20,000 nucleotides of DNA from an uncultured virus (IMG/VR IMGVR_UViG_3300032373_000005) (Duplodnaviria; Heunggongvirae; Uroviricota; Caudoviricetes). The position numbers and the translations under genes are program-made. The notes under the pieces were generated by a model. It made no database searches. It saw nothing but the letters and a program-made list of their open reading frames with translations, and was not told where the DNA came from. How positions within the stretch are numbered: the first letter of the stretch is position 1; each line of letters begins with the position of its first letter. The DNA lies in the IMG/VR virus record IMGVR_UViG_3300032373_000005; one strand, given 5' to 3'. This document shows, piece after piece, positions 56 to 19,999 of the stretch.

Positions 56-99
56 ACCCTCGGCGTCAGGAGGAGGAGGGATCTTCTCGCCCTCGGTTC

Positions 100-3000
100 G
101 TGGTCCCCAGCCTCGACGGCGTGGACCCGGCGAAGCTGGCCGAGGTCGAGCGGCTGCTGGCGGAGATGGGGCGGAAGCTCTCCTCCTCCCTCGCAGAGGC
201 GGTCGAGGAGCAGATCGGTCAGCCCGTCGCCGCGGTGCGGATGCCCAAGGGCACGGGTGGGCTGAGTGCCTACCTCACCTACCCCCCCGCCAACATCAAG
301 CCGCAGGCGCGCACGCTGACGCGCGACGATGTGCAGTCGTTCGCGGGCGGCCTGGCCGCCAAGGCGGGCGTCACGCTGGAGATGAGCGGGCCGATCAAGG
401 GTGACGGCAGCAACGCCCCCATCGTGGTGCTCAACGTCATCATCGTCGACCAGTCCGACCGAAACCAGGGCCTCGGCTCTGCTGTCATGGACGAGGTCAG
501 CAAGTGGGCCGATGAACAGGGCGTCATCATCGCGCTCACCCCTGGGTCAGACTTTGGCAGCTCGGTCTCCCGGTTGCGCCGGTTCTATATGGAGTTTGGC
601 TTCGCGGAGAACAAGGCCCACCGCAAGGACTACCGCACACGCGAGCGCATGATCCGCTACCCGGAGGATGCGCTGCACAGCTCGCTCTCCTCCCTCGCAG
701 AGGCTGCTGATCGCTTGATCGCTGGCGAGATCACCATTGAGGAGTACAAGCGGATCGCCCAGGCCGCCAAGGCTGACGCGCCCGCAAAGGCCCCAGCCAA
801 GACGGATGGTCTGGCAGCGCTCAAGGACGAGCTGAAGACGATCAAGGACAGCTTCGACGAGCGCTACCAGATGGATCGCGTCTGGGCGAATGTCAAGGAT
901 CTCGGCCGCGGCGAGCGGCTGCTGGTGATCGACCAGATGCGCGTCCGCGAGGAGTACCGCCGCCAGGGCATGGGCACGCGCGCCCTCGAAGACTTGCTCG
1001 ACTTTGCCGATCGGCACGGCATGATGGTCGCGCTGACGCCCGACGACATGGGCGCGCCCAAGCGGGTACTGACGCGCTGGTACAAGTCCCACGGCTTCAA
1101 GCCCAACAAGGGGCGCAACAAGGACTTCCGCTTCCGTGAGGCGATGGTCCGCCAGCCCCAGGCGCCCAAGGCCCGCCCTGACCGGCCCGCTCCCGCCCCG
1201 GTCGCTGTGCAGCCCGCCTACAAGACCAACCCGCGCGCCAAGCAGACCCCGCTCCCGCGCAACCTGCCCGCCGCGGCGCAGCGCTTCCTCGCTGACAGCG
1301 CCGTGCAGAACGTCGTCTACCACGGTGTACCCGACGCGCGCTGGGCACGTCACCCCGACACCGCAGTCCTGCAGACCACCACGCAGCGGTACGGCGGCCA
1401 CGACAACAGCCCGGTGTTCTTCTTCACCGACGACCGCCGCCTGGCCTCGACCTACCGCGACAACAAGCCCACGCCGGTGCTCGGCCGCGACGAGGTGCCC
1501 GAGCCCGGCATCCTCAAGGGCTACCTGTCGATCACCAACCCCTACCGGGTGCAGTGGGGTGGTGAAATTTGGAGCGGCGCGGACGCGGACGGCCTGAAGC
1601 TGCGCGACCACATCGAGCGAGCACGAGAAGCAGGCAACGACGGTGTCATCGTCGACAACGTCGTGGACGACTACCAGCGCTCCAGCAAGAGCCGGCCGGC
1701 CACCGTGTACGTGGTTTTTGAGTCGAACAGCTTCAAGAGCGAAGACAACCTCGGCACCTACGACCCCGCCGAGCCTTCGATCCTCCGCAGCCCGCTCGAC
1801 GCAGACCTCCGCGAGCGCCTCGAGGAGATGCTCAACAGCGAAGACCCGGACGTGGTCAGCCAGGGGCTGGAGCTGTTCGACATGCTGGGGTTGGATCGAG
1901 AAGCCCCCAGCGAGGAAGGAGGAGGTCTCCTCTCAAGCCCGGTCTCTCCTCCTCCCCCCGCGTCCCTGGTCCCCCGCGACGAGGTGGGCCGGGTGCTGCA
2001 GCCGATGGACCTGACGTACCCGCCCGGCCAGGGCGAGGGCGGCGCCTACGACGTGGTCAGCCTCTTTGATGGGATCTCCGCAGGCCGGCAGGCGCTGGAG
2101 AACGCCGGCATCCCGGTCGGCCGCTACCTCGCCTCAGAGGTCGACAAGTTCGCCAAGCAGGTCTCGGCGTCCAACTGGCCCGAGATCGAGCAGATCGGCG
2201 ACGTGACGAAGCTGGAGACGGGTGAGGCCGACAGCGTAGCCCTGCCCGAGCGGTACGACTTCCTGATCGGCGGCAGCCCCTGCCAGGATCTGCGCAAGGG
2301 GCGCGACGGGCTGAAGGGCAGCAAGTCCAAGCTGTTCTTCGACTTCGAGCGTGTCTTCCGTCTGGGCCGCCACAAATACTTCCTCTTCGAGAACAACTCC
2401 GAGATGTCTGCCGCGGATGCGGCCTACGTTACCGAGACCTTCGGAGTGGCCCCGATCCTGATCGACGCAGAGCGCGTCGGCGGGATGCGCCGCAAGCGCT
2501 ACTTCTGGACGAACATCCCCGGCATCCGCCAGCCTGCAGACCTCGGGCTGACCGGCGCCGACATCATGCTCGGCTACGACGAGGCGATGGCGCTCGGCCC
2601 CGAGCAGGTCGGGGTGATCACCGACAAGACCCGCAACACCGCCGAGGGCAGCCGCAAGCCGGGCGGCAAGCCGCGGTGGCAGACCGGCCAAGACGCCATC
2701 CAGGTCAAGAGCGACGACAAGCTGCCGACGATGACGTGGCGCCGCGGCAAGGGTGTCCCCTACGACATCGTGACCCAGGGCGACCGCTGGCGGCGCCTGG
2801 CCCGCGTCGAGGCGGAGCGCATGATGGGCTTTCCTGACGGCTACACCGACGCCGTCAGCCGCAAGCAGGCGCTGCATGGCACCGGCAACTCCTGGTCGGT
2901 CCCTGTCGTCGAGCACATCTTCAGCCACCTGGCCCAAGAGAAGGGCAACACCCCCTCCTCCTCCCTCGCCGAGCTGTCCCGCGCCGAGAAGGCCGAGGTG

Positions 3001-6000
3001 ATCTCCCGGCAGCTCGGCCTGTTCGGTGTGCGGCACCCGGTCGAGCAGCGCATCCGCGCGGAGGGAAACGACGGGTTGCGCTCCCCCGACCTCGACGCCG
3101 AGGGTGACAATCCTGCTGCCCTCGCCGCCGAGATGCTCACCCACGCAGACCCCCAGGTCGCAGCCCAGGGAGCGGAGCTGGTGGCGGCGATGGGTATTGA
3201 CTTCGAGGTCGAAGTCTACCAGTCCATCGTTGAGTCGCTGCGCGCCCTGCCGCAGATAGTGGCTGATACCCCCGCCAACAGGCTGTTTCTGACGTACCCG
3301 GTTTACCCAGTTCTCTTCATCGACAACCTTGTCGCGGACAGGCTGTCACCGCAGCAGTCGCAGCGGCTGGCTGGTCAGATGCGCGACATGGCTGAGTTTC
3401 TCTTGTCGCACACTGCCGACCCTATGGCCGACCGCGACTTCCGAGAGCCTGCCGACAGCCTCATCCGGGCGGCTGGACGGATGGAGGGTGTGGAGCCTGT
3501 GCGCGACCCGAAGCAGGTCATTGTAGACCTGCTCGCCGCGCTCGCAAAGGAGGGCGTCACCGCGTATCCGTCTCCTCGCGATGGCTGGGTGGTCCTCGAC
3601 AAGATGGACCAGCAAGCGCTCAGGTCTGCCACACAGAGGGCATCGTCGCGGCTGGCCGAGAAGTACCCCTACCGCGGAAACCTCACCTACTCCATCGGCA
3701 GAGAGTACGGTGTCGGCTTCACGCAGGTCGAGCTTCCCACAGCCATACAAAATCCTCCTCCTCCCACGCAGACGACCAGCCCGCCCAAGTTCAACAAGCG
3801 GCGGATCGGTAGCGCCGAGCGGGAGGCCAACTTTGCCGCCTGGTTCGGCGACAGCAAGGTGGTCGACGAGGCGGGCAAGCCGCTGGTGGTGTACCACTGG
3901 ACGCCTGCCGAGTTCCGTGTCTTCGAGTCGGAGGGTGAGGGTTTCCACTTTGGCACAGAGCGAGCCGCCATCGACCGGCGGGACGACGTAGGCGAACCCA
4001 TCGAGTACGAAACCGAGGAGGACGAGAACGACGGCTTCTACGTCATCGCCGACTCAGGACCACAGAAGGGTCAGGAGCAGGGACCGTTCCCCACCGAGGC
4101 CGACGCTGAAGCCTTCATCGAGCAGCAACCCAAGCACATCGAGCCGATGGCGATGCACCTGCGCATCTCGAATCCTATCGAGATGACGGACTGGGGAACG
4201 TGGGGGCTGGGTGGCATGATCGTCGCCCTTCAGGACAAGGGAATCATCGACAGTAGAGACGCTGACGACATCATCGAACAGCGCCGACTGCGCCAGGGCG
4301 GCGGCTTCGCTCGCATGAAAGACCTGCTCATCGAGCGCGGCTACGACGGCATCAAATACCTCAACGAGGCAGAAGATGTCGGCTCGGTCTCTTGGATCGC
4401 CTTCAGCCCTGAGCAGGTCAAGAACGTCGAGAACGTCGGCAGCTACGATCCCAACAACCCCGATATGTACCAAGCCCGCTCCCTCGACGACGGCGCCGAG
4501 CAGATCCACGGCTACTACCAGCGCACCGCTGCCGGCCACCTCATCCACCTGTTCAAGACCGGCACACTCGGCACACTGTTCCACGAGCAGGGCCACCTCC
4601 TCAAGGCGCTGCTGGGGGAGGAGGAGGCGGAGAGCCTGCTGCGGATCTTCCGGGGGCAGGCGGCCCGCCTGGAGCGCGAAGAGGGTGCGAAGCTGACGCG
4701 AGACCGGGCGGCAGACTACGACGCCTATACCGACGCCGAGAAGCCCGAGGAGCTGATGGCGGACGCCTTCAAGCTGTACCTGCGGCTGCAGACGGCACCC
4801 AACGGCGTCTTCTATCGGGCCTTCGAGCGGCTGCAGTACGCCCTGGCGGATGCCTGGCGCCGGGTGCGCGGCCGAGCGGAGTGGCTGCCGGCCGAGGCGG
4901 TGGCAGTCTGGGATGGACTGCTGCGTCCGGACCTGATCGCCGACAGCAAGGCGTTGCAGATCAACGGCTACCAGCGCGCCACCGAGGCACCGCCGAGCGT
5001 GACGATCCCCAAGGGTGCCGCGGCCCGCACCGGGCAGCTCGGTGCAGAAGCCCGCGCCAAGCACGACGCCCGCGCCCCGATCCGGCGCGACGAGCTGCTG
5101 CAGCAGTCGGGCTACGCCGAGGGGCAGTCGGTGCCCATCAACGAGCTGATGGCAGACCTCGTGGGGATCTCTGCCGCCGAGCGCGCCCGTCGCCGCATCA
5201 AGGGCGTCGAGTACGTCTCGCTGACCCGCCGTACAGCTGTGCCCCGCCAGCGGGTGCGCCTGGTCGCCGGCCGCGCGCACGACAAACTGGAGCGCGCGCT
5301 GGGGGAGTCACCGGAGACCGTCGCGCAGCGCCTGGGCGACGAGGCAGGCACGACCGGCGCCCGACAGGGCCGCACCCTGCACCTGACGCAGCCGCAGGCC
5401 GCGGGCATCCGCCTGCTGGCCAACACCACCGCCATGCAGCCGATGGGTCGGTCCATCCCTGGCCGGCTGCTGGATCCAGACGCGGACCTCTCGACGATCA
5501 CCCTCGACGAGCTCAACGCGCTGCAGGAGGCGGTAATCGACACCGAGGCGGGCATCGCCTCGGGCCGAGACCGCACCGTCGAGCGGATGCCGCCCACGGT
5601 CGGCTACGCCCTGCTGCGCACGCTGCGCACCGCCCCCACCGCCGCCGCTGAGAAGCTGCGCGGGGCAGCGGTCGGCACCGCTGCCGGCGCTGCGCAGAAG
5701 TACAGCGAGGGGGAGATGTCGCGCAGCGCGGCGCAGAGCGCCATCGACGCCTCGGCGAAGACGGCAGCGGTGGCCGACAAGGCACTGAGCGCCGCCGCCC
5801 GCGCCGAGGCTGTCGCGCGCACCCTGGAGAAGTGGTTCGTGGTCCGCGACGACCTCGAAGGTGACATCGATCCGGGGCTGCTGGAGGTGATCACCTCGAC
5901 GATCCGCGACCTCAACGGCATCGACTATTGGGTGCGACAGGCCCAGCGCGCGGTCGTCGCAGAAGCCAAGGACAAGCGCCGCAGCTACCGGCGCAGCCAC

Positions 6001-8748: not shown

Positions 8749-10328
8749 AACGCCGCCGAGACCGCGCCGTGCGGGTCGTCGATCACAGACAGCTTGCGAC
8801 GGTAGCGTTTGAGCTCCAGCCGCGGCGCCCTGGGCAGGGTGCGGCGGTTGTACTCGGCGAGGACCAGCGCGTCGGCGTGGTCGTCTTTGGTGTCGTCGCG
8901 GTCGCCGCTCCCCTCTTGGGGGTTGGAGATCCGGCCGTTGACCTCGCGGATGCGTGACAGCTCGCGCAGCACCTGAAGGTCTGGGATCTCCAGGGCGTCC
9001 CCGTTGATCATCTGGCGGGCGTGGCTGTAAGCGTCCGTCTTCGTCCCGCGGCTGGTGTGCCAGTCCTTGCCGGTGTCCGGGTCGACCCACAGCCGACAGC
9101 GCTCTTTGCGCAGGTAGCGGATGACGTTGTGGCCGCCGCCGCCCTTGTTGGACTCGCAGAGGATGCGGGCGCGGTTGTAGTAGCCGGCGATCCGCGACAG
9201 CCGCTTCGCGAACCCGATCTCGCCGTCTGGATGACTCTTCATGCTCAGCACAGCGCACAGCCGCCCGCGCTCGTCGAGGACGACAGCGGCGGCGTAGTGC
9301 CCGCCGTTGCACCAAGAGGGGTCGGCGCCGATGGCGTAGGCCATGCCCGGCGTGGGCTTGCGGTAGATCCGCAGCAGCCCCTTCTTCGAGACGTTCTTGT
9401 AGACGCCGATCTGGGTGTTGAGCCACCCGACATCGAACCAGCCGCCCTCGAAGGAGAGGAACCCCTCCTCCATCGTGGTCGGGTAGAACTTCCTGAATTT
9501 TGCGAGCCCGACGCCCTCTGGCCCGTAGATTTTCCAGTGTCGCCAGTAGAGCTGGGCCTTGTCGAGCTTCCAGATCCGCCCGTACTCGACCTCCTCGTCC
9601 ATCGGCTGCCAGTGGGGAGGAGGAGTGCGTCTGTACTCGGGGTGCTCAAACCACGCCCAGAAGAAGAACCTCACCGCGGGGTTGTTGTGGATGCGGTCCT
9701 CTTGGAAGGCGGCGTTGACCTGCTCCTCGTATTTCCCGCCTGGCCCGTTGGGTGTGGAGATGATGACCTTCCGGCCCTCGTCGCTGATCGCCGAGGTGAT
9801 CGACGCCCACGCCTCGTTCTCGTTGGGCCAGAACGCCATCTCTTCGGCGATAAGGTTTTGATATGTCTGACTTTTCCCCAGCGACCGGCCGCCGACCGTG
9901 GCGAGCTTGAGCATCCCGCCGTTGCGCCCGAACTGGATCTCGTGTTTGTTGTGGTTGACGCGGATGTTTAGCTGCGGCTGGATGCGGCCGGGCAGGTTCT
10001 CGGCGAACGTCTTGTGCTTGCGCAGCAGGGAGTCGGTGGTGTCGCCGGTGTCGCAGGCGACCATCGTGCGCAGCGGGCCGCGGGCGCGACAGTGATCGTG
10101 GAAGAAGCTGCCGGCGTTGACCGTCGACATGTAGACCTGGCGCGACTTCAGGAACACGAGCAGCTTGACGCGGACATCGCACAGCGCCTCAAGCGCCTCA
10201 AGCTGCGCCTTGGATGGGCGGTTGAAGGGGGCGATGGTGCCGCTGGCGCCCTTGTTCTCGATCTGTAGCCAGCGGCCCATGAAGCGCCGCTTGCTGCGCA
10301 AAACTTGGGCGTCTGTGAGGGTGCCCAC
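8745..10328 (-). CDS. terL: Terminase large subunit
   Basis: Walker A-like VFLKSRQVYMST, Walker B LIAEEMAFW, coupling motif IISTPNG, F.QEYP-like FRKFYP, RNase H-like nuclease YAIGADPS ... ILCESN ... DDHADALVLA; its stop codon overlaps that of the giant ORF. Confidence 0.92.
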   Translation of the reverse strand: MGTLTDAQVLRSKRRFMGRWLQIENKGASGTIAPFNRPSKAQLEALEALCDVRVKLLVFLKSRQVYMSTVNAGSFFHDHCRARGPLRTMVACDTGDTTDSLLRKHKTFAENLPGRIQPQLNIRVNHNKHEIQFGRNGGMLKLATVGGRSLGKSQTYQNLIAEEMAFWPNENEAWASITSAISDEGRKVIISTPNGPGGKYEEQVNAAFQEDRIHNNPAVRFFFWAWFEHPEYRRTPPPHWQPMDEEVEYGRIWKLDKAQLYWRHWKIYGPEGVGLAKFRKFYPTTMEEGFLSFEGGWFDVGWLNTQIGVYKNVSKKGLLRIYRKPTPGMAYAIGADPSWCNGGHYAAAVVLDERGRLCAVLSMKSHPDGEIGFAKRLSRIAGYYNRARILCESNKGGGGHNVIRYLRKERCRLWVDPDTGKDWHTSRGTKTDAYSHARQMINGDALEIPDLQVLRELSRIREVNGRISNPQEGSGDRDDTKDDHADALVLAEYNRRTLPRAPRLELKRYRRKLSVIDDPHGAVSAAF

Positions 10329-10338
10329 GCGCCGACTC

Positions 10339-10848
10339 CTACTTCGCCGCGGGGACGACCCAGCCGTTGTCGGAGTCGTCGTCGCTCTCCTCGAAGTGCC
10401 CGTCGAGACTGCCCCCGGTCAGCGTGGCGCCGGCCTCGACCTTCTCACGGGCGATCCGCAAGGTGTTGTAGAGCTGGAGGTGGGCGACGTTGCCCGCCCG
10501 CAGCCCGCGGCCGAGCTGCATCCAGAACAGCCCGTCTGCCGCTCTGAGATCCGCCTCGGTCGGCCCTTCGACCTCGGGGAACAACTCCCCCCACCACATC
10601 TGGAAGTCTGGGTTGGCCCACCAGCGGTTCCACTCCCGCACCGTGACCGGGTCGCCATCCCAGGCGAAGGTCTTGAGGGGGCTGTCGTCGGGCAGCCGCG
10701 CCCGCATGTCGTTGTCGACGAGCATCCGAGACGCCTGACACCACACCGAGATACCGTAGGCACCGTCGATGTTGCACGCCCAGGCCAACTGGCTGAACTG
10801 GTGCTGGCGCTTCGAGGGTTTGTAGACGGGCAGGGGCACAGCGCTCAT
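10339..10848 (-). CDS. Probable terminase small subunit (start reassigned to ATG 10848)
   Basis: Immediately upstream of terL on the same strand; HTH-like WNRWWANPDF..WW, oligomerisation-like GNVAHLQLY and acidic tail; the ATG lies inside the inverted-repeat arm. Confidence 0.6.
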   Translation of the reverse strand: MSAVPLPVYKPSKRQHQFSQLAWACNIDGAYGISVWCQASRMLVDNDMRARLPDDSPLKTFAWDGDPVTVREWNRWWANPDFQMWWGELFPEVEGPTEADLRAADGLFWMQLGRGLRAGNVAHLQLYNTLRIAREKVEAGATLTGGSLDGHFEESDDDSDNGWVVPAAK

Positions 10849-10959
10849 ATCCAGACCGATAGGCGCAGCAGGCAGCGGGCCGTCTACCCATTGTACCCAG
10901 AGGGTGTAAGCGACAGCGTTGATGCCGGTGTAGCCGCCTATCGGTCTGGATATGAGCGC
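10841..10959. repeat. Perfect 25-bp inverted repeat (10841-10865 / 10935-10959) around a 69-bp spacer
   Basis: GCGCTCATATCCAGACCGATAGGCG and its exact reverse complement CGCCTATCGGTCTGGATATGAGCGC. Confidence 0.97.
10890..10895 (-). promoter_or_regulatory. Candidate sigma70 -10 box TACAAT directed at terS-terL
   Basis: ATTGTA on + equals TACAAT on -, about 40 nt upstream of the terS ATG; no convincing -35. Confidence 0.4.
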
Positions 10960-11488
10960 CGACACACAGCCCCGGCTCGACATCCACCGGCTGGTCTCTC
11001 GTGCAGACCAGAACCGGAAAGCGGGCAGCGTGCGCCTGGTAAATGCCCTCCTCCTCCGCTACCGCTACGACCGCGCCCGCCAGGAGGTCATGCTGTGCGC
11101 CGGAATGACGGGGCAGTGGCAGACCTACCGGCTGGAGCTGGTGCGCGGTCGGTGGGCGGTGGCCTGCCCAGGCGGCCGGCACAAGTGCAGCCGCCGCGCC
11201 GAGGTGCTGTACTTCCCGTTTGTCCGCGGCGCAGACCGGCCCGATCAGGCGGGACTGTGCCGGCACTGCTGCGGGATGCGGATGCTGTCAGAAGACCCCC
11301 CGCGGGCATCCGCTGCCCTGCGCGCTGACCTGAAGATGGGGTCACGCCGCTCGGTCGCTGACGCCCTCTCAGGCGGCGGCTACCTTGCCGCCCGCTGGGC
11401 GCTGGAGAAAGAGGGCATCACCGCCCGTCGCATCTTCACCAGGGCGGACGGTCGGTCTGCTCGATTTGGCTACTTGAACCAGGAGTAA
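10952..11488 (+). CDS. Zn-ribbon-containing hypothetical protein
   Basis: W..ACP...HKCSRRAEVLY...LCRHCCG fits a CP-x-C-RR-x-LY...CRxC Cys4 pattern; the ATG lies inside the right IR arm. Confidence 0.65.
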   Translation: MSADTQPRLDIHRLVSRADQNRKAGSVRLVNALLLRYRYDRARQEVMLCAGMTGQWQTYRLELVRGRWAVACPGGRHKCSRRAEVLYFPFVRGADRPDQAGLCRHCCGMRMLSEDPPRASAALRADLKMGSRRSVADALSGGGYLAARWALEKEGITARRIFTRADGRSARFGYLNQE

Positions 11489-11492
11489 GATC

Positions 11493-12242
11493 ATGCTGCC
11501 CGAACTGCTCAACGGCGGAAAGCTCAACCAGGCCCTGCGCATGGGCGACGGCTCCAACAGCGCCGACTGCCGCCGCGAGGACGGCAAGCAGACGGTCGCG
11601 ATGGGTGACGCTGCTGCCACCTTCACCCTCGGCGGCACCTCGGTGACTGGCGAGGTGCGGCTCGCTGCGAACATCATCAACATCGACCCGGAGTCGTCGG
11701 GCGCAGGCGAGAACGCGACCATGCCTGCGACGGCGAACTGGCGCGGCCCCTACACCTTCTACAACTCCGGCGACGAGGACGTCTACTTCCTCGACGCCTC
11801 CGCCTCTGCGATCGTCACGCTGAAGCCGGGCCAGCACGTCACGCTGCGCAGCGACGGCACCATGATCTTCGTCGAGCAGGCCGTCATCGAGACCGCGCGC
11901 TCTTGGTACAACGCCCCCGGCGCCGAGCAGATCCTCTACATCGCCCCGCAGCCGGTCACCGTCACCGCCATCACCGGTCGCGTCGGCACCCCCGGCTCAG
12001 ACGGCGGCGCAGTCACGGCGACCATCTACAAGGCCGCCAGCGGAACGGCGCCGGGCAGCGGTTCCGCGCTGCACACCGGCACGTACAACCTCAAGGGCAC
12101 CGCAGACACCAACCAGAACCTCGCCCTGCACGGCACCGCCGCCAACCTCCAGCTCGACGCTGGAGACGCGATTGTCATGGTCTCCACGGGGACGACGACG
12201 GCAGCAGACGGGATGGTCTCGGTTCAGGTTCTGCCCCGCTGA
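11493..12242 (+). CDS. Putative virion structural protein (Gly/Thr/Ala-rich, beta-rich; decoration or fibre-like)
   Basis: SD AGGAG just upstream, strong GC3 codon usage, beta-rich composition, late-operon context. Confidence 0.6.
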   Translation: MLPELLNGGKLNQALRMGDGSNSADCRREDGKQTVAMGDAAATFTLGGTSVTGEVRLAANIINIDPESSGAGENATMPATANWRGPYTFYNSGDEDVYFLDASASAIVTLKPGQHVTLRSDGTMIFVEQAVIETARSWYNAPGAEQILYIAPQPVTVTAITGRVGTPGSDGGAVTATIYKAASGTAPGSGSALHTGTYNLKGTADTNQNLALHGTAANLQLDAGDAIVMVSTGTTTAADGMVSVQVLPR

Positions 12243-12270
12243 TCGCACCGCATAGCGGGAGGAGGAGGAG

Positions 12271-12762
12271 ATGGGACTCACAGGGTTTATCGGCAACGTC
12301 AACCAGCCGACCGGCATCAACACCACCTACACGCTGTCGAAGGTGGTGCGGATGACCTACAACGACAACGCCGCCACCATCGATGGGCGCACAACGCGCC
12401 CGCCGAAGAATCTGGCGGAGTATTCCAGGCTGTACCTCAAGTTTTCGTCGGTGACGGGTACGCTGTCGGGCGTCGAAGCCACGCTGACCTGGGACGCTGC
12501 GGGCAACGAGATTGCGGCGGGTCCGTTCTCCTCCTCTACGCCGTTCACCGGGATGACCGGACCCAGCAACCCGGTCTTGTTCGGGATCGGGTTGGACGAC
12601 TGGTGCCCGATCACACCGACCGACACCGGCTCCACACCGCCGGACTTTGACGCCTACCCTGCTGGCGACTTCTACCTCCACCTCAAGCTGTCGGGCTCCA
12701 CGCCCACCGCCACGCTGTCGGGTGCGCGGCTGGAATGGAGCCAGCTCGGAGTGCAACTCTGA
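12271..12762 (+). CDS. Putative virion structural protein (beta-sandwich-like)
   Basis: GGAGGAGGAG directly before the ATG; Thr/Gly/Ser-rich; TGATG coupling to the next gene. Confidence 0.6.
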   Translation: MGLTGFIGNVNQPTGINTTYTLSKVVRMTYNDNAATIDGRTTRPPKNLAEYSRLYLKFSSVTGTLSGVEATLTWDAAGNEIAAGPFSSSTPFTGMTGPSNPVLFGIGLDDWCPITPTDTGSTPPDFDAYPAGDFYLHLKLSGSTPTATLSGARLEWSQLGVQL

Positions 12763-13481
12763 TGGGTTGGACAGGCAAAAACCAGGACGGCTGGGGAACG
12801 GGTGCCGCCGCGCCCGTCGCGGCCTCCGCAGACCCGCCAGCCTGGAACAAGGCCGGCGCCACCGTCATCGGCACCGACATCTTCGCCGACAGCGGCGACA
12901 ACCTCGTCATTACCCTGCCCGATGGCACATCGGCGTTCACCGCCGCCAACGGCATCGCCGAGCTGGTGGGTGCGTTGGTCTGGGATCTGGGCACCCTCGG
13001 CGACTACCACGGCTCGCTCTCGATGAGCTTCAAGCCGGTCTCCCTCGGCGACGAGGTGACGATCTGCATGGGCATCGGCTTCCGCGCGGGCGGGCTGCCG
13101 GCCTCGATGGTGGAGCTGGTCGCCGCCGACCACCAGTACGCCCAGATGCTGCGGCGGGTGAGCTTCTCGGCGCAGCGCAACAGCCTCTTCAGCCGCGGCA
13201 ATGGCGACTCACTGCAGGACAACGTCAGCAACGAGCGCACGGACAGCCAGCAGTTCTCGATGAACACCGAGCTCGCCCCAGAGCGCATCGGCACGATCGT
13301 CGGCCGGCACACCTGGCCCGGCGGCGGCCTGCATCGTCCGCTCAACTGGAATTTGCTTACTCCCACCGCGGGCGATCGCGTCTACGCCTTCCTCGGTGCG
13401 TGCAGCCGCCTGGCCATCTCGACCGGCGACCGCCCCAGCACGATCACCATGACCGGGCGCAGCGTCCCGGCGGGGAGCTGA
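12762..13481 (+). CDS. Hypothetical protein, probably structural (start reassigned to ATG 12762)
   Basis: TGATG stop/start overlap, in frame with ORF 12735-13481, good codon bias. Confidence 0.6.
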   Translation: MGWTGKNQDGWGTGAAAPVAASADPPAWNKAGATVIGTDIFADSGDNLVITLPDGTSAFTAANGIAELVGALVWDLGTLGDYHGSLSMSFKPVSLGDEVTICMGIGFRAGGLPASMVELVAADHQYAQMLRRVSFSAQRNSLFSRGNGDSLQDNVSNERTDSQQFSMNTELAPERIGTIVGRHTWPGGGLHRPLNWNLLTPTAGDRVYAFLGACSRLAISTGDRPSTITMTGRSVPAGS

Positions 13482-13484
13482 CCG

Positions 13485-14273
13485 ATGGCAGCGCCCTACG
13501 ATGGAGTCATCCTCGGCGCCGGCCACGGCGGCTGGGCTGGGTTCGACAGCGACGGCAACCAGCCTCACACGATGGAGCTCGGGGGCGAGGTCCTCCGCGG
13601 GTACTACACGACGCCTGCGCGCAACGGCAAGCGCTTCACGTTCACCGACCTCCGGCCGCCGCAGTTCGTCGCCGAGGGCGTGCTCAACCGCTGGATCATG
13701 GCGGGGGTGATCGCCGCGTACATCGACGAGGGCGTCTACCCCCACGACTGCATCACCATGCGCCAGTGGAAGCGGGCGCCGCACTGGACCGAGTTGGAGC
13801 AGCGCGATGTGTCGCTGACAGAGCGGGTGGCCTACTGCCGCCTCCACCGGGAGTTGCCCTACGTCTCCATCCACTGCAACGCCCAGGGGATGACCAACAC
13901 AGGCCCCTCGCGCCCCAAGCGCGGCACCCAGATCTTCACCCACCCCGGCGAGACCGGCGCGGACGGCATCGCGCGGGCGATGCTCCCAGCGCTCGACGCA
14001 GCCCTCCAGGGCTGGGGCTCTGCCAGCCGCGGCGACTGGAAGACCTCCATCCACGAGGCCAACTTCCACGTCCTCCGCAAGACGCCCCAGGAGGCTGTGC
14101 TCGTCGAGTGCGGATACTTCGACAACGCCGACGATGCCGCTTTTCTCGCGAGCGTGAACGCCCCCCGCCTCTTCGGGCGCGGCATCGTCGCCGCCACGAT
14201 GCCGCTGCTCAACCCGCCACACCGCCGCAACCGCTACCGCTTCCGGCGCTCCTCGAGCCGAGCCCAGAGCTGA
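13485..14273 (+). CDS. N-acetylmuramoyl-L-alanine amidase (Amidase_3) endolysin
   Basis: ILGAGHGG (Zn His), AEGVLN (Zn Glu), LTERV, YVSIHCNA (Zn His), FHVLRKT..EAVLVECGYFDN (catalytic Glu). Confidence 0.9.
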   Translation: MAAPYDGVILGAGHGGWAGFDSDGNQPHTMELGGEVLRGYYTTPARNGKRFTFTDLRPPQFVAEGVLNRWIMAGVIAAYIDEGVYPHDCITMRQWKRAPHWTELEQRDVSLTERVAYCRLHRELPYVSIHCNAQGMTNTGPSRPKRGTQIFTHPGETGADGIARAMLPALDAALQGWGSASRGDWKTSIHEANFHVLRKTPQEAVLVECGYFDNADDAAFLASVNAPRLFGRGIVAATMPLLNPPHRRNRYRFRRSSSRAQS

Positions 14274-14301
14274 ATCCTCCTCCTCCCACCCGGAGAGTAC
14301 C

Positions 14302-15132
14302 GTGCCTGCCCAGACGATCCCAGCCCTCACCGCGGCGCTCCAGACGCTGCTGGCAACCTGGCGCCGCCAGCGGACCAGCCACCTGCTCGACTACGCGCGG
14401 CAGGTCACCACCGAGACCGACATCGACGAGTTCGTCCTCGCCCAGACCCAGGCGCTGATGGCCGACCTCTGGGGCAAGGCCGGCGCCTGGCTGGTCCGCA
14501 AGCTCGTCGACCTCGGCGAGGCGGTCGACGAGAAGCTCCAGTGGCAGTTCATCAAGGACCGCTCGCTGCGCGCGGAGTTCGAGAAGCGCGACAACCCCAC
14601 GGCGCTTCTGCTCGGCGCCTGGGCAGACCTCGCGGACGCCGTAGAGGAGGCTGCTGTCGAGGTCGTCGACCAGGACGAAGACGACGTGGCCGAGGTCGTC
14701 GCCCTCCGACTGCTGGGAGGTGGCTTCTCCGCCCGCCCTTTCGGTAGGGGCCGCGGCGTCGTCAAGGTCGACCGCGCGAAGACCGAGACCGTCGCCGAGC
14801 CGGTCGCCGAGCCAACCGACGCCGAGCAGGAAGCCGCGGACCTCCGGGTCGAGCTCCGCATCATGGCTCAGGAGCACAGCGCGCAGATCGCCAGCCTCAC
14901 CGAGACCGTCGCCCAGGTCACCGCCGAGAACGAGGCACTGCGCTCCCAGCTCGTCGAGCGGGACACCAACGCCGACGACGAGCCGCCGGTGAGCGTCGAC
15001 AAGCTCAACACCCAGCAGGCGGCCCGCCTGATCGACGAGCCCGACGAGAAGCCCGCCGACGACGAGCCCAAGATCGTTGACGTGACCGACCTGCCGCAGG
15101 CAACGCTGCCCGCCGGCGCCCAGGTCCGCTGA
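14302..15132 (+). CDS. Hypothetical protein with coiled-coil and acidic C-terminus
   Basis: SD GGAGAG before the GTG, strong GC3 bias, heptad segment IASLTETVAQVTAENEALRSQL. Confidence 0.7.
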   Translation: MPAQTIPALTAALQTLLATWRRQRTSHLLDYARQVTTETDIDEFVLAQTQALMADLWGKAGAWLVRKLVDLGEAVDEKLQWQFIKDRSLRAEFEKRDNPTALLLGAWADLADAVEEAAVEVVDQDEDDVAEVVALRLLGGGFSARPFGRGRGVVKVDRAKTETVAEPVAEPTDAEQEAADLRVELRIMAQEHSAQIASLTETVAQVTAENEALRSQLVERDTNADDEPPVSVDKLNTQQAARLIDEPDEKPADDEPKIVDVTDLPQATLPAGAQVR

Positions 15133-15165
15133 GACAGTCAGCGCGCAGAATTTTAGGAGCCCTCC

Positions 15166-15906
15166 ATGTTGACCGTCGCCCTGCTCTCCCTCGCCGTCGC
15201 CCTCGCGCAGCCAGCCGGCGACGGCGATGTCATCTCCTCCGACCAACCGGCGATCACCGAGCCCGACACCGGCTGCACGGTCACCCTCGACGGTACCACC
15301 ACCTGCGAGCCCTCCCCTGCCAGCGTGACCCTCGGCCCTGACGGCGATGGCGATGGCGACGGCGGTGACTCGGGGAAGGAGGAGGAGACCATCCTCTGGA
15401 AGCCGTACCACCCGATTGTCGACCTCTTTTACTTGATGATGTTCTTCGCCAACGAGGGCGAGCGGATTGTGGCGACCGCCATCGGGATCGCCGTCACGCT
15501 CGGCGCGATCCTGAGCGTGCCGTTGAACTTCATCCTGCACCACGTCGGGCGGCATCTGGTGGGGCGCTCCCTCACCGCCCAGCGAGCGGTCGAGCGCCTC
15601 CAGACGATGCTCCCTGCTCGGCCGGCGACGAGAGCCGAGACGCTGCTGCGCCGAGACCTGGCGGCGGCCAAGCGGAGGGAGGCCGAGGGCCTGGAGCGAG
15701 AGGCAGACAGCCAGGAGCTGGTCAGCCAGCTCAAGACCACCCTGACCCAGCAGATACGGCTGGGGCTCGGCCGCGAGCAGCTCCTGCAAGCCCTGCTCGG
15801 CGATGCCGTCGATCTCTCCGAGTACACCGTCGAAGCAGTCGAGGGCCGCCTCAGAGAGAAAAAATCCTCCTCCTCCCCAGGGAGCGGTGAGGTTTCGCGT
15901 GTCTGA
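15166..15906 (+). CDS. Membrane protein with signal peptide, TM helix and cytoplasmic coiled coil (possible lysis accessory)
   Basis: SD AGGAG 15155-15159; MLTVALLSLAVALA signal; hydrophobic IVATAIGIAVTLGAILSVPLNFIL. Confidence 0.7.
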   Translation: MLTVALLSLAVALAQPAGDGDVISSDQPAITEPDTGCTVTLDGTTTCEPSPASVTLGPDGDGDGDGGDSGKEEETILWKPYHPIVDLFYLMMFFANEGERIVATAIGIAVTLGAILSVPLNFILHHVGRHLVGRSLTAQRAVERLQTMLPARPATRAETLLRRDLAAAKRREAEGLEREADSQELVSQLKTTLTQQIRLGLGREQLLQALLGDAVDLSEYTVEAVEGRLREKKSSSSPGSGEVSRV

Positions 15907-16549
15907 GGAGGCCCTCGACCACCGACGAACGGTGCGAGAGGTCGACCAGATGCTCGGCCCGCTGCCACGGATCGAGCCGCTGCCAGAGGGGGAGGGCCGC
16001 CCGTGGATGGCAGCGGCGGCCCCCTCTCTGGTGGCACTGGCGCGACAGCAGGCGCTGCTGGCTGGCCAGCCCAAGCTGACCCCGGCCGAGGTCGTGCAGC
16101 GCCGCATCGAGGCCGGCGACGGTCCTCTGGATCCAAGCCTGCTGGTGGAGTGGGCGCGGCGGGTGCGGCGGCGGGTCAGGCTGCGCCGGTGGCTGCACAG
16201 CCGCACGGTGGCCCAGCTCGAGGAGGCCGCCGGCAGTGATCTCGTCGACGCGCGGCTGCGCGCCATCGCTGCGCACCACCTCAAGCAGCGGCGCCTGGGC
16301 GCGCTGGTGGTGGGCCAGCCGCGGCGAGGCGACCAGCTACCCGCCCTGGCACGCACCGATCGCTCCGCCACGCGCGACGAGCCGACGCCCCGCAGCCTGG
16401 CCGGCTACACCGGGCGGGTCTACGCCGACACCGGCGAGCCCGAGACGTGGCGGGTCGAGGTGCCGGCGAAACTGCTGGAGGCGGTGCGCAAAGAGAGCGC
16501 CGCTCACATGGCGGCGATGGCGGAGCTGCTGGCTGCGCTGGGCGGCTGA
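15899..16549 (+). CDS. Hypothetical basic protein (start reassigned to GTG 15899)
   Basis: GAGG SD upstream of the GTG, overlap with the previous stop, TGATG coupling to the XRE gene. Confidence 0.6.
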   Translation: MSEEALDHRRTVREVDQMLGPLPRIEPLPEGEGRPWMAAAAPSLVALARQQALLAGQPKLTPAEVVQRRIEAGDGPLDPSLLVEWARRVRRRVRLRRWLHSRTVAQLEEAAGSDLVDARLRAIAAHHLKQRRLGALVVGQPRRGDQLPALARTDRSATRDEPTPRSLAGYTGRVYADTGEPETWRVEVPAKLLEAVRKESAAHMAAMAELLAALGG

Positions 16550-16877
16550 TGCGCGAGCCATTCGGCAGCGCCCTGGTGAGGTTGCGGAAGCGGGCCGGGC
16601 ACACCCAGACGAGCCTGGCCGACGCCACGGGCGTCTCTCGGAGCGCCATCTACAAGTGGGAGCGCGGAGAGCGCCCCCCGCAGAGGGCGACGTGTAGCGC
16701 CCTCGCCCAGGCGCTGGGTGTCGATGTCGCGGCGCTGTGGCGGCCGGCGGCCTGCTGCCGGAACTGGAGCAGGCGGTCGTCGAGGCCGACGAGGAGGAGG
16801 GGGACTTTGAGAAGGAGGAAGCCGACGATCTCATCCAGCAGATCCGCGAGATGCGGCGGATGTTCGCGACCTTCTGA
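16549..16877 (+). pseudogene. XRE-family HTH regulator interrupted by a 1-nt frameshift near 16737 (real lesion or sequencing error)
   Basis: FGSALVRLRKRAGHTQTSLADATGVSRSAIYKWERGERPP..TCSALAQALGVDVAAL is a classic HTH_3; good codons continue in the -1 frame (VAAGGLLPELEQAVVEADEEEGDFEKEEADDLIQQIREMRRMFATF*) to TGA 16875-16877. Confidence 0.75.
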
Positions 16878-16976
16878 GAAGACCTCCTCCTCTGCTGGCC
16901 AGCGCCTCGGGGTAGTCTCGGGGCGCTGTTTTGTGTCGGACATGACCATATTTTGTAGGTGGCGCTCTGAATAAAT

Positions 16977-17017
16977 ACGCAAGTTTGCGTTGACGCGGTT
17001 TAGATATGCGCATATCT
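16977..17017 (+). promoter_or_regulatory. Promoter/operator region: -35 TTGACG (16990-16995) flanked by two palindromes
   Basis: ACGCAA-gt-TTGCGT (16977-16990) and perfect 16-bp AGATATGCGCATATCT (17002-17017) in an AT-rich intergenic stretch; -10 only weak. Confidence 0.6.
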
Positions 17018-17065: not shown

Positions 17066-17719
17066 ATGAGCGACCGCAACAACCGAAAGACTGTCCTCTT
17101 CAACGATGCTGAGATGGGCCTGGTTGCCGCGGCGGCAGCGGAGACCCACCCCACCCGCAGCGGTGGCACCAACGTCAACCGCGCCATCCGAGAGGCTGCC
17201 ATCGACAGCGCGGTCAAGGTGATGCACAACGCTGTGATGAGCGCCACCGACCTTGATGCGCTGCTCGGCGCGCTCCAGCAGTTCAAGCGTACCGTCGAGC
17301 CGGTGCTGGAGGACGGAGACTACCAGCACTACTACGAGGGATTCATTAGCGACCTCCCCACATTCGGCGGCGAACCGGTCAACGAATGGGAGATCTGGAG
17401 CTGGGACGACACCCGAATCCTCGTCGGTACGTGCATCGACGACATGACCATCGAGGATCGCGAGCTTCACCCCGCCCAGTACATCCTGATCCCGCAGTAC
17501 ACCGCGGACGGTCAGGAACTGGACCCGATCATGTACTCGCTGGACACCGCCGAGGAGACCACCGAGGCTGCCGAGGCGCTCACCGAGGCGGGGCTGGACT
17601 CCGCTCCGGTATGGGTTGGCGAGGGCGAGGACGCCATCAAGAACGGACTGGTGGTCCTCGCTGAGTGGCCTCGCGGACGGGATGCGCTGCTGGTGTTCGG
17701 GCCGGTGCTGTCCGAGTAG
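17066..17719 (+). CDS. Hypothetical protein with N-terminal ribbon-helix-helix-like segment and LPTFGG..WSWD..R.LVG motif (start reassigned to ATG 17066)
   Basis: SD GGAGAG 17052-17057; RKTVLFNDAEMGLVAAAA...VNRAIREAAI resembles RHH; acidic C-terminal domain. Confidence 0.7.
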   Translation: MSDRNNRKTVLFNDAEMGLVAAAAAETHPTRSGGTNVNRAIREAAIDSAVKVMHNAVMSATDLDALLGALQQFKRTVEPVLEDGDYQHYYEGFISDLPTFGGEPVNEWEIWSWDDTRILVGTCIDDMTIEDRELHPAQYILIPQYTADGQELDPIMYSLDTAEETTEAAEALTEAGLDSAPVWVGEGEDAIKNGLVVLAEWPRGRDALLVFGPVLSE

Positions 17720-19202: not shown

Positions 19203-19235
19203 CCGCCGCTCCAGTGGTTCAGACTGGAGCGGCGG
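19203..19235 (-). promoter_or_regulatory. Perfect 13-bp hairpin overlapping the integrase SD
   Basis: CCGCCGCTCCAGT-ggttcag-ACTGGAGCGGCGG; on the minus strand the GG of GGAGG (19204-19200) lies in the stem. Confidence 0.7.
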
Positions 19236-19730: not shown

Positions 19731-19999
19731 CACGCCGCCTCCTCGTCGAGAGGGATCGGCGTCAGTCCCCCGGTCTGCTCCTGCGCCTGGCGGGCCGGCC
19801 GGCCGGTCGAGCTGCCCAGAGCGTCCGCGCGCAGCGCCTCGCGCACGTCACCGACGCGAACTCGCCGCATCCTCGGGCCACCGATCCACAGCCGGTGACG
19901 GTCAGCGAATGACCGCGCTGCGGTGGTGCTGACCTGTAGGTGGGTCGCCAGGGCGGACAGGGTGAGGAGATCCTCGGGGCCGTAGATGAGTGCTGGCAT
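19730..19999 (-). CDS. Excisionase-like winged-HTH DNA-binding protein
   Basis: LLTLSALATHLQVSTTAARSF...RRVRVGDVREAL matches the MerR/Xis-type pattern; upstream of int; may start beyond the window edge. Confidence 0.65.
   Translation of the reverse strand: MPALIYGPEDLLTLSALATHLQVSTTAARSFADRHRLWIGGPRMRRVRVGDVREALRADALGSSTGRPARQAQEQTGGLTPIPLDEEAA

Follow-up and report, generated by a model that had tools for sequence, protein, structure and literature searches.

A short asymmetric word of about 14–16 nt, with the consensus A-N-N-Y-Y-CTCCTCCTCC-C and the fullest form ATCCTCCTCCTCCC, recurs about once per 1.5 kb on the coding strand of this phage and is maintained at the nucleotide level where the protein tolerates change. 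It looks like a selected DNA or RNA signal. The window, meaning the whole 20-kb stretch of DNA that was analysed, is part of a contig listed at 72,312 bases from an uncultured, GC-rich phage that encodes an integrase and an HTH regulator and is therefore considered temperate. It includes a giant gene of 8.6 kb, encoding a polyvalent protein, that offers no intergenic gaps.

The dispersed (TCC)n motif described in the first-pass annotation is real: CTCCTCCTCC/GGAGGAGGAG has 14 overlapping exact matches at 13 places in the window (69-, 180+, 1946+, 2955+, 3755+, 4617-, 6094+, 9616-, 11048+, 12258/12261-, 14277+, 15378- and 15867+), compared with 0.12 expected from dinucleotide shuffles, which gave at most 2 in 200 trials. 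Codon-preserving controls also fell short of the 14 observed, with 4.55 expected from synonymous shuffles (maximum of 8 in 2000; this total takes in three fixed non-coding matches) and 3.60 from whole-codon shuffles. The frames reported earlier are correct (SSS at 180/2955/15867, PPP at 1946/3755/9616, LLL at 6094/11048, EEE at 4617/15378), ATCCTCCTCCTCCC recurs exactly at 3752, 6091, 14274 and 15864, and the 17-mer AATCCTCCTCCTCCCAC is identical at 3751–3767 and 14273–14289. There is likewise no copy beyond 16.9 kb, even with three mismatches allowed, an absence that carries little weight over a 3.1-kb stretch where about 2.5 copies would be expected. TCC/GGA runs of 6, 7, 8 and 9 nt number 32, 14, 2 and 3, and those of 10, 11, 12 and 13 nt number 5, 4, 5 and 1, a bimodal distribution with a sharp ceiling at 13 nt and without a geometric tail. 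Runs of at least 10 nt number 14 for TCC/GGA and at most 5 in every other trinucleotide class.

The motif had also been described as strand-independent and present in both orientations. Both are indeed represented, but the excess is confined to one. Inside genes, coding-strand CTCCTCCTCC occurs 8 times versus 0.28–0.52 expected from synonymous shuffles (15–30x enrichment; the count of 8 was reached in 0 of 3000 shuffles with an expectation of 0.28), whereas coding-strand GGAGGAGGAG occurs twice versus 0.67–1.31, as protein sequence and codon usage predict. Sense pyrimidine runs follow the same pattern, with 8 of at least 10 nt (0.52 expected) and 10 of at least 8 nt (2.47 expected), neither count being reached in 1000 shuffles; sense purine runs of at least 8 nt stay at the synonymous-shuffle level (6 versus 5.76). 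Counting the intergenic site at 14277, all nine unexplained copies are co-oriented with transcription. The nine strong sense copies and three weaker ones, spread over 17 kb, are as follows.

178–192 (core 180–189), plus strand: CTCTCCTCCTCCCTC, 80 nt into the giant gene, encoding SSS in the repeated peptide SSSLAEA.
1943–1959, plus strand: TCTCTCCTCCTCCCCCC, encoding PPPP in a Ser/Pro linker that precedes the C5 methyltransferase domain by about 30 residues.
2951–2967, plus strand: CCCCCTCCTCCTCCCTC, encoding SSS (SSSLAEL) 5 residues past the end of the methyltransferase domain.
3752–3765, plus strand: exact 14-mer ATCCTCCTCCTCCC, encoding PPPP in a Pro/Thr linker before the ART-PolyVal domain.
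6091–6104, plus strand: exact 14-mer, encoding LLL where the conserved C-terminal core of the giant protein has a gapped, variable segment.
9614–9625, minus strand: CTCCTCCTCCCC, on the sense strand of the terminase large-subunit (TerL) gene, ACT CCT CCT CCC encoding T-P-P-P.
11046–11057, plus strand: CCCTCCTCCTCC, encoding LLL in g4, a zinc-ribbon-like protein.
14274–14287, plus strand: exact 14-mer in the 28 nt separating the stop of the endolysin gene (14273) from GTG 14302, where g9 starts, and 4 nt ahead of the g9 Shine-Dalgarno GGAGAG.
15864–15877, plus strand: exact 14-mer encoding SSSS within the final 40 nt of g10 and 8 nt ahead of GGTGAGG, the g11 Shine-Dalgarno (g11 start GTG 15899).
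7726–7737, plus strand: weaker copy TCTCCCTCCTCC, on the sense strand of the giant gene.
12526–12537, plus strand: weaker copy TTCTCCTCCTCT, on the sense strand of g6.
16883–16893, plus strand: weaker sense copy CCTCCTCCTCT, 5 nt after the last operon stop codon and directly preceding an intrinsic terminator at 16900–16928.

The purine-run copies are the following:

68–80, plus strand: AGGAGGAGGAGGG, in the gap between the upstream gene stop (53–55) and the giant gene (GTG 100).
4614–4627, plus strand: GGGGGAGGAGGAGG, encoding G-E-E-E.
12257–12271, plus strand: GGGAGGAGGAGGAGA, the Shine-Dalgarno region of g6, whose ATG follows directly at 12271.
15372–15388, plus strand: purine run with GGAGGAGGAG, encoding K-E-E-E in g10.

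The copies at 4614–4627 and 15372–15388 are ordinary by-products of Glu codons, and the two coding-strand GGAGGAGGAG copies encode the sole two Glu-Glu-Glu tripeptides. The site at 68–79 is non-coding, the upstream gene, in another frame, stopping at TAG 53–55; the run at 68–80 resembles a Shine-Dalgarno sequence, yet lies about 20 nt from GTG 100, most likely the start of the giant gene. Read on the minus strand, 12257–12271 has one mismatch to the 14-mer. Half of the seeming strand independence thus consists of ordinary Glu codons and Shine-Dalgarno sites, a lesson in splitting motif-enrichment claims by coding strand.

Five lines of evidence uphold the earlier suggestion that selection acts on the nucleic acid rather than on the protein. 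The enrichment outlasts synonymous-codon shuffles. The motif codons are atypical, with CCT used for 7/7 motif prolines and TCC for 12/12 motif serines, versus 11% of Pro codons and 21% of Ser codons outside motifs. The encoded residues are not conserved among homologues: the LLL of g4 is GLF in the syntenic relative L198, and in the giant protein neither the EEE (9 homologues aligned) nor the LLL (7 aligned) is retained. The TerL Pro-Pro is conserved in relatives and written with other codons there, ACT CCT CCT CCC appearing only here, and the 10-mer at this site was found in 0 of 46 terminase relatives. Finally, in a relative (X4) with about 18% divergence over the piece concerned, site 180 appears to be kept, lengthened to (TCC)4, despite seven flank changes: positions 171–173, 176, 178, 179 and 190 differ, and no core change is among those listed. 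The sites are set in linkers, variable segments and loops, gene ends and junctions, and intergenic gaps, and the motif creates nearly all Pro-Pro-Pro and most Ser-Ser-Ser tripeptides of the encoded proteins.

Some of these settings would suit a functionless by-product of TCC microsatellite slippage or of low-complexity Ser/Pro/Leu peptides. Four of the six giant-gene sites fall in Ser/Pro/Thr-rich linkers, two lie in the repeated peptide SSSLAE, and gain or loss of a trinucleotide preserves the reading frame. This neutral origin is nevertheless strongly disfavoured, and the least probable of the readings considered, given the 8 copies observed versus 0.28–0.52 in synonymous shuffles, the bimodal run lengths with their 13-nt ceiling, and the restriction of the effect to TCC among trinucleotide classes. 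Furthermore, a single orientation is enriched though linkers should accept Gly/Glu/Arg repeats just as readily, the TerL site came about via rare codons at a conserved Pro-Pro, with no insertion, and flanking positions are common to the sites.

Those flanks comprise A at -5 in 7/9 sites, C at +1 in 8/9, and pyrimidines at -2 and -1, which suggests a defined recognition sequence rather than a mere repeat. Sense runs of at least 8 nt are also evenly spaced, with gaps of 799–2339 nt (CV 0.32 versus a null of 0.87, P = 0.001; minimum-gap test, P = 0.0004). Significance needs the 8–9 nt copies, since the test limited to copies of at least 10 nt gives P = 0.08, and the sense-only choice of sites was made after data inspection.

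Even spacing of about 1.5 kb, together with one enriched orientation and the other at the neutral level, could instead relate to a polar DNA signal for a DNA-tracking machine, such as a Chi-like word, a KOPS-like guide for a translocase, or sites for lagging-strand priming at roughly Okazaki-fragment intervals. Like Chi (RecBCD/AddAB), KOPS/SRS (FtsK/SpoIIIE) and architecture-imparting sequences, which act through their density along DNA, the word is short and asymmetric and occurs in any frame of coding sequence; as with all of these, one orientation is enriched and the other neutral. A Chi-like word would offer protection from a host helicase-nuclease and create recombination hotspots, which would explain mosaic joints beside the motif: 3 of 14 boundaries of X4 pieces lie at most 25 nt from a strong site (4596, 14258 and 15364; about 0.55 expected by our own estimate), and four runs place contig ends and an identity step at 14258–14306, next to 14274–14287. 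However, X4 piece boundaries also fall at gene boundaries and may be assembly or alignment artefacts. Eight of the nine enriched sites are on the plus strand, but the ninth, in the minus-strand TerL gene, was clearly selected on the opposite DNA strand, via rare codons. Orientation therefore appears to follow gene direction rather than one DNA strand, a distinction drawn from one copy in the single minus-strand operon. Chi- and KOPS-type words belong to the host chromosome and follow the direction of replication, whereas this word was seen in one phage lineage only. Chi and KOPS words are also 5–8 nt long, compared with 14–16 nt here, and primase recognition involves about 3 nt. Among 301 genomes from one phylum, which may not be that of the host, none showed the word strongly enriched relative to the reversed control. 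We consider a polar DNA word unlikely. Among the roles proposed earlier, a Chi, KOPS or packaging signal might conceivably apply; a parS-like site is a misfit, since parS-like sites are palindromic and the motif is asymmetric.

The same genomes bear on whether the phage copies a host genomic signature, be it a DNA-uptake sequence or some other word abundant in the host. The motif is written in all three frames, as uptake sequences are, at about one copy per 1.5 kb, and is lineage-specific, TerL relatives having 0–1 copies per locus (46 loci). USS/DUS and hyper-abundant words such as cyanobacterial HIP1 are comparable in that these 9–12 nt sequences, at about one per kb, are tolerated within genes in several frames and impose particular tripeptides; they are a property of the host genome. 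Even the densest of the 301 genomes, all from the phylum of G001, reaches 0.04 per kb for the 11-mer (239 copies over 5.9 Mb; reversed control, 234), compared with 10 in the 20-kb window (0.5 per kb). Uptake sequences occur in both orientations and are not confined to the sense strand, whereas the phage enrichment is sense-only, and no genome of the 301 approaches 0.5 per kb. The host-mimicking motif proposed earlier thus finds no support within that phylum, possibly not the host's, and is very improbable. The nearest Atlas clusters of the integrase hint loosely at Acidobacteriota, Verrucomicrobiota and Planctomycetota, phyla other than that of the 301 genomes.

The complementary strand, GGGAGGAGGAGG(A), is of the (GGA)4 type and could putatively adopt a tetrad-heptad G-quadruplex, with an i-motif on the C-rich strand; a quadruplex on the template strand of the enriched copies could slow polymerases or seed recombination. 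The exact 12-mer GGAGGAGGAGGA occurs five times in the window, and about 11 of the 13 strong sites, judged by eye, give four GG runs with 1–2 nt loops. As precedents, d(GGA)n quadruplexes form in the c-myb promoter (PMC2330228) and r(GGAGGAGGAGGA) folds as a parallel quadruplex (PMC2764455). These precedents are eukaryotic or, as with the R12 RNA aptamer, artificial, and the enriched mRNA strand here is C-rich. Two-tetrad quadruplexes are weak within duplex DNA. Moreover, the conserved core is (TCC)3 plus C rather than four GG runs, the copies at 178–192 and 16883–93 offer three GG runs only, and sites other than the five exact GGAGGAGGAGGA copies reach four only via adjacent G residues. A quadruplex would not require the conserved A at -5 on the pyrimidine strand, and we regard this structural explanation as improbable.

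The main rival, itself rather doubtful and in line with the SD/anti-SD-like elements proposed earlier, would operate at the RNA level. As transcribed, the word carries the anti-Shine-Dalgarno core (CCUCC) in tandem and could pair with GGAGG-type sequences (Shine-Dalgarno sites and similar) in the same transcript, masking start sites until an upstream ribosome melts the structure (translational coupling), or bind a factor specific for the 16S 3' tail; we take the AUC-CUCCU in the word to resemble the 16S 3' end. Sense-strand specificity is consistent with this, as are the canonical GGAG-type Shine-Dalgarno sites of the phage genes and the positions of 14274–14287 and 15864–15877, 4 and 8 nt before the Shine-Dalgarno of the next gene. 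Predicted pairings include a 12-bp stem of 68–80 with 178–192 enclosing the giant gene start, 15864–77 with the g11 Shine-Dalgarno (z = -2.18; 6/200 shuffles fold as well), 16791–16803 with 16883–92 (z = -2.71; 1/200 shuffles), 1917–25 with 1946–55, and 11047–57 with AGGAGG at 11082. However, folds of 14255–14325 (z = +1.31), 1900–1975 (z = -0.40), 11030–11110 (z = +0.36) and 12235–12300 (z = +0.01) are no better than shuffles, and that of 55–200 gives z = -1.56. A complementary (GGA)n run of at least 8 nt lies within 200 nt of just 4 of the 10 sense sites, which is not significant against 20% of random positions. Far inside the giant gene, the sites at 2955, 3755 and 6094 have partners of at most 5–6 nt and no nearby start codon, and simple pairing leaves the conserved A at -5 and the even spacing unexplained.

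Known systems of this kind include the start-associated sequences (SAS) of cluster K mycobacteriophages and Shine-Dalgarno-masking coupling hairpins, in which conserved sequence near gene starts contains the Shine-Dalgarno or pairs with it; 12257–71, 14274–87 and 15864–77 are similarly placed at gene junctions. SAS lie immediately upstream of start codons, whereas, of the 9 enriched copies, 6–7 are remote from any start, and it is the Shine-Dalgarno complement that is enriched. Among the sites in the window, 12257–71 is the only positioned Shine-Dalgarno, 68–80 being about 20 nt off.

Our best guess, offered tentatively, is that the word is an orientation-dependent protein-binding site predicted to act on transcription, like the stoperators of mycobacteriophages. 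It would be a cis-acting signal read along the direction of transcription by a sequence-specific protein, phage-encoded or phage-exploited. Once bound, this candidate reader would act orientation-dependently on elongating RNA polymerase, so that the copies could serve as roadblock, pause or silencing sites spread along the long late operons of a temperate phage. In the giant gene, which has no intergenic gaps, the sites would have been written into inter-domain linkers.

Several observations are consistent with stoperator-like sites: the single enriched orientation, following genes (8 versus 0.28 expected), the shared flanks with four exact 14-mers and two identical 17-mers, the even spacing of sense runs of at least 8 nt, the temperate lifestyle indicated by the integrase and HTH regulator, and the apparent persistence of site 180 in a diverged relative. 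There is also a precedent, since stoperators are asymmetric 13-mers with more than 20 copies per genome and an orientation that correlates with transcription (PMC9283540). The word described here resembles them in its asymmetry, in its length (13–14 nt for the two words) and, over the 17 kb that carry its copies, in a density of about one per 1.5–2 kb in a temperate phage, and its orientation is likewise tied to the direction of transcription: the sense orientation alone is enriched, and the minus-strand copy in TerL, the only one of its kind, is also sense.

Other features fit less well. The sequence, a pure pyrimidine tract, is unrelated to that of stoperators, which are located in promoters and short intergenic gaps, whereas 8 of the 9 sites here are inside reading frames. 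One of these is in the last 40 nt of a gene (15864–77) and seven are well inside, leaving a single intergenic copy (14274–87). No copy lies at any recognisable promoter in the window, and the regulatory region at 16977–17017 has palindromic operator-like sequences instead, with none of the nine enriched copies. The protein that binds stoperators is a monomeric immunity repressor, which combines an HTH with a second DNA-binding domain and blocks elongation; no such monomeric two-domain repressor was found in the window, nor was any cluster A repressor relative or candidate reader, Pfam giving just an Xre-type HTH protein, encoded from 16549. That orientation follows transcription rather than one DNA strand hangs on one minus-strand site, and 12257–12270 matches the extended consensus in reverse. 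Support from spacing depends on 8–9 nt copies and a post hoc choice of sense sites, and the window covers 20 kb of the 72,312-base contig.

On a broader view, the word could be a form of genome punctuation, a 14–16 nt pyrimidine signal co-oriented with transcription and written into coding sequence at domain linkers and gene junctions, which might control very long late operons, the 8.6-kb giant gene included, via a dedicated factor, though we advance this with reserve. This factor, of phage or host origin, would recognise the copies, about one per 1.5 kb, on the non-template DNA strand or in nascent RNA, and its usual target might be the anti-Shine-Dalgarno tail of 16S rRNA. Such punctuation may possibly represent a previously undescribed kind of phage signal.

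Dispersed polar words are rare in phages, and the understood cases, stoperators and Chi, revealed new regulatory or DNA-processing mechanisms. Here the signal is so strong that it imposes rare codons. Should a reader protein or RNA partner exist, the word would point to a new form of temperate-phage control of transcription or translation across very long genes, and it would also provide a sequence tag for relatives of this otherwise unclassifiable microbial-mat phage lineage.

The TCC-repeat core word CTCCTCCTCC or its purine complement GGAGGAGGAG has 14 matches at 13 places in the window (G+C 68%), against 0.12 expected, and is the most repeated 9-, 10-, 12- and 14-mer of the sequence. A recount bore out the coordinates, reading frames and longer recurrences described in the first-pass annotation, and its observation of a dispersed word stands; one correction is that the copy at 68-79 is intergenic: a gene in another frame stops at TAG 53-55, and third-position GC in frame 1 is low until GTG 100. 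TCC-periodic runs become geometrically rarer as they lengthen, down to 2-3 runs at 8-9 nt, but lengths of 10-13 nt then account for 15 and nothing exceeds 13 nt, which marks a discrete class and not the tail of a microsatellite distribution. Maximal-order Markov expectations are uninformative for a periodic word; under the codon-preserving controls that the annotation had called for, the excess persisted, the 14 observed matches comparing with 4.55 expected in a synonymous shuffle (three fixed non-coding matches included; maximum 8 in 2000) and with 3.60 in a whole-codon shuffle. That so many copies accumulated as a neutral by-product is highly improbable. The second most repeated 10-mer, CGCCGAGCAG (complement CTGCTCGGCG), has nine copies as a raw count, and CTGCTCGGCGCC has four copies in the window.

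The gene map, based on a third-codon-position GC plot and family searches, is that of a temperate, tailed phage, whose DNA is present in microbial-mat metagenome runs. No tRNA genes were found across the window, which holds the following features.

About GTG 100 to 8748, plus strand: giant polyvalent-protein gene, with two GNAT-like regions
Giant-protein residues 684-980: C5 DNA methyltransferase domain
Giant-protein residues 1289-1478: ART-PolyVal domain
8745-10328, minus strand: T4-type terminase large subunit (TerL)
After TerL, minus strand: small gene, conserved beside the terminase in relatives
10952 to an intrinsic terminator at 16900-16928, plus strand: operon, its last gene of Xre-type HTH
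13485-14273, plus strand: amidase endolysin, in the plus-strand operon
Past the operon terminator: regulatory region, then one more gene (g13, 17066-17719), then a tyrosine integrase (18031-19191, minus strand)

The excess of the word is strand-specific. When coding copies were split by sense strand (the coding strand of each gene) and synonymous codons were shuffled gene by gene, sense CTCCTCCTCC occurred eight times against 0.28 expected, a count reached in 0 of 3000 shuffles (maximum 3), whereas sense GGAGGAGGAG occurred twice against 0.67 expected, as many as in 158 of 3000 shuffles. Sense pyrimidine runs number 10 against 2.47 at lengths of at least 8 nt and 8 against 0.52 at lengths of at least 10 nt (0 of 1000 shuffles each), while the corresponding purine runs number 6 against 5.76 and 2 against 1.31. 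Enrichment is confined to sense CTCCTCCTCC, which refutes the strand independence originally proposed for the motif. Both purine copies in coding sequence correspond to the window's only two Glu-Glu-Glu tripeptides, and 90% of Glu codons are GAG; the two non-coding purine copies are the Shine-Dalgarno sequence of the operon gene g6 and a copy upstream of the giant gene; the reverse-orientation copies thus have ordinary explanations, with the caveat that the g6 Shine-Dalgarno copy matches the extended consensus in reverse. The unexplained class therefore comprises nine strong copies (runs of at least 10 nt), 9/9 on the coding strand; the TerL copy lies on the opposite DNA strand, and another falls between genes of the plus-strand operon. 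This polarity would put a (GGA)4 quadruplex, a structure treated in PMC2330228 and PMC2764455, on the template strand, and such a quadruplex is a quite unlikely explanation.

The proposal that selection acts on the nucleic acid rather than on the protein is supported by the shuffles, and also by rare codons, unconserved residues and the spelling of one site in TerL. Elsewhere in the genes CCT accounts for 11% of Pro codons and TCC for 21% of Ser codons; inside the motif the figures are 7/7 and 12/12. All five PPP tripeptides (overlapping, at three places) are written with the word, as are five of six SSS, counting a weaker 9-nt copy in operon gene g6, and two of five LLL; the tripeptides arise from the word, not the word from the tripeptides. 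In TerL a family-conserved Pro-Pro is spelled ACT CCT CCT CCC in this phage only: the 10-mer is absent from this site in all 46 aligned relatives, GC-rich ones included, and the closest, syntenic relative (L198) has ACA CCC CCA CCT CCA. Comparison with homologues, which the first-pass annotation had put forward as a check, likewise found the encoded residues not kept, as LLL in the zinc-ribbon protein of operon gene g4 becomes GLF in L198 and, in the conserved C-terminal core of the giant protein, EEE is not conserved in nine aligned homologues nor LLL in seven. The remaining four giant-gene sites encode Ser/Pro/Thr linkers in the variable N-terminal half; a pair of these brackets the methyltransferase domain, 30 residues from its start and 5 from its end. 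Module exchange through direct repeats around this domain was rejected from the coordinates, since the copies at 1946 and 2955 lie in different reading phases and recombination between the two would throw the gene out of frame. Short linker peptides are also repeated across residues 55-1070 or so of the giant protein (window 100-3300). SS(S)LAEA is present at three places (near residues 60, 240 and 985), and a longer module, LRSP..D...DP.V..QG.EL...G(L/I)D, which spans some 40 residues, recurs at two (near 600 and 1030). The repeats border the enzymatic domains, where they could serve for docking or processing.

When the nine sites are aligned on their cores, A stands at -5 in 7/9 (A frequency 0.18) and C at +1 in 8/9, positions -2 and -1 are pyrimidines, and four of the sites carry the exact 14-mer ATCCTCCTCCTCCC. 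Sense copies of at least 8 nt are separated by 799-2339 nt inside two plus-strand units, with a spacing CV of 0.32 against 0.87 under the null (P = 0.001; minimum-gap test P = 0.0004), and P = 0.08 when only copies of at least 10 nt are used; these P values are indicative only, because the choice of sense copies followed the strand result. Such regularity is compatible with selected density and equally with a single site in each protein module. A Rho-loading (rut-like) region was rejected: in the 80 nt around nine sense sites, C minus G was -0.001 against a null mean of 0.024 (P = 0.79), and surroundings neither C-rich nor G-poor argue against one.

The main rival explanation is an RNA element in which the word serves as a tandem anti-Shine-Dalgarno core. 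The start signals of the phage are GGAG-type, two copies precede the Shine-Dalgarno sequence of the following gene by 4 and 8 nt, and predicted folds pair several copies with GGAGG sequences (best z -2.2 and -2.7) and form a 12-bp stem around the giant-gene start. However, three deep intragenic copies are without a partner, and pairing with a nearby purine run is not significant as a general rule (4/10 versus 20%). On balance an RNA element is doubtful.

The phage has no close relative in culture: a Megablast search of cultured phages came back empty, and the nearest cultured TerL, from Roseobacter phage CRP-7, is 27% identical. A TerL protein scan of IMG/VR found no locus, and scans with a TerL alignment, covering IMG/VR, GTDB genomes and JGI metagenomes, yielded only relatives of at most 59% identity. 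The 10-mer has 0-1 copies per locus in 46 TerL-relative loci (L121-L125, L197 and L198-L237; 37-59% identity; loci with weaker TerL matches left out), including those of 66-68% GC. Scans of IMG/VR with the giant-protein C-terminus, with operon gene g9 and with a 40-nt stretch from the window start found nothing; all giant-protein homologues are at most 34% identical, and other giant phage proteins share only the C-terminal 1400 residues or so. A search with the 17-mer common to 3751-3767 and 14273-14289 returned 11 unrelated contigs with 1-2 copies each, and the 14-mer is too common for diagnostic use. The 11-mer has 10 copies in the window (0.5 per kb), whereas among 301 genomes from the phylum of the one genomic relative the densest held 239 in 5.9 Mb, against 234 for the reversed control. 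The host may lie outside this phylum, and the Atlas neighbours of the integrase point only loosely to other phyla; a host signature is decidedly unlikely.

A diverged relative in an aquatic-metagenome run, X4 (contigs of 24 and 29 kb), matches in pieces at 80-98% identity. Near site 180 it differs at 171, 172, 173, 176, 178, 179 and 190, which would turn R-K-L-S-S-S-L into E-R-S-S-S-S-V with four TCC codons, and none of these listed differences falls in the core (180-189). Retention of the word while its flanks changed is suggestive, at a single site and for the differences listed. The relative is mosaic, with 97% identity from 14258 through g9, below 80% in the endolysin gene, 89% over 12837-13483 and 82% over 9738-10172, and with 1421 nt of the giant gene (3063-4485) swapped for 1619 other letters. 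The 97%-identical block starts just ahead of the site at 14274-14287, and contigs from two other runs end at 14287-14289; this junction could reflect recombination or no more than the edge of a gene. In the contig alignments no pile-ups of molecule ends were reported. A recombination hotspot, or a signal of Chi or KOPS type, is unlikely as a general account of the word.

Several other features were noted. An inverted repeat of 38 nt (arms 10828-10865 and 10935-10972, 84% complementary, 69 nt apart) flanks the divergent region between the terminase-adjacent minus-strand gene (ATG 10848) and g4 (ATG 10952, plus strand); the inner 25 nt of the arms, containing GGTCTGGATATGAGCGC, match perfectly, and therefore the divergent genes may share a leader and first codons. 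In sequence, 10828-10972 looks like a symmetric divergent control region. In the Xre-type HTH gene (16549-16878) third-position GC changes phase near 16737-16750, where the coding frame switches; the new phase gives a well-formed acidic C-terminus ending in LLPELEQAVVEADEEEGDFEKEEADDLIQQIREMRRMFATF with a stop at 16878, and the original frame stays open until 16974 with an implausible Arg/Cys-rich tail. The switch could be a frameshift, by error or programmed, or mark a separate 47-codon gene from GTG 16737. Past the operon terminator and ahead of the gene that starts at ATG 17066, the perfect palindromes ACGCAAGTTTGCGT (16977-16990) and AGATATGCGCATATCT (17002-17017) adjoin a TTGACG hexamer and are probably operators of an immunity region. 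Lastly, a strong hairpin of 13 bp with a T-run behind it (19203-19235, plus strand) lies 12 nt past the integrase start codon (19191, minus strand); it could act as a terminator that keeps outside transcription away from the integrase gene, or could belong to the attachment region. In metagenome run X1, the probable source run, one contig fuses 17834 to 19129 via 38 other letters (depth 48.6 versus about 104 for the main form) and therefore lacks nearly the entire integrase gene; a second joint skips 19291-19662 (depth 92.6), and depth is doubled across 19344-20000.

The best single reading, which we hold tentatively and by analogy, is that the word may be an orientation-dependent protein-binding site acting on transcription. 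The word tracks gene direction, has a defined sequence of 14-16 nt, recurs every 1-2 kb and sits where the protein tolerates it, and its nearest overall likeness is to the stoperators of cluster A mycobacteriophages. PMC9283540 describes these as asymmetric, orientation-dependent 13-mers with over 20 copies in each genome, to which the immunity repressor binds and so halts elongation. A limited literature search turned up no published account of a dispersed (TCC)n signal in a phage. Its placement, however, is unlike theirs, because most copies lie inside genes, and the phage's regulatory region carries palindromic operator-like sequences in place of the word. Known from 20 kb (of a contig listed at 72,312 bases) of one uncultured phage and a glimpse of one relative, the motif is a dispersed polar cis-word in a phage genome.
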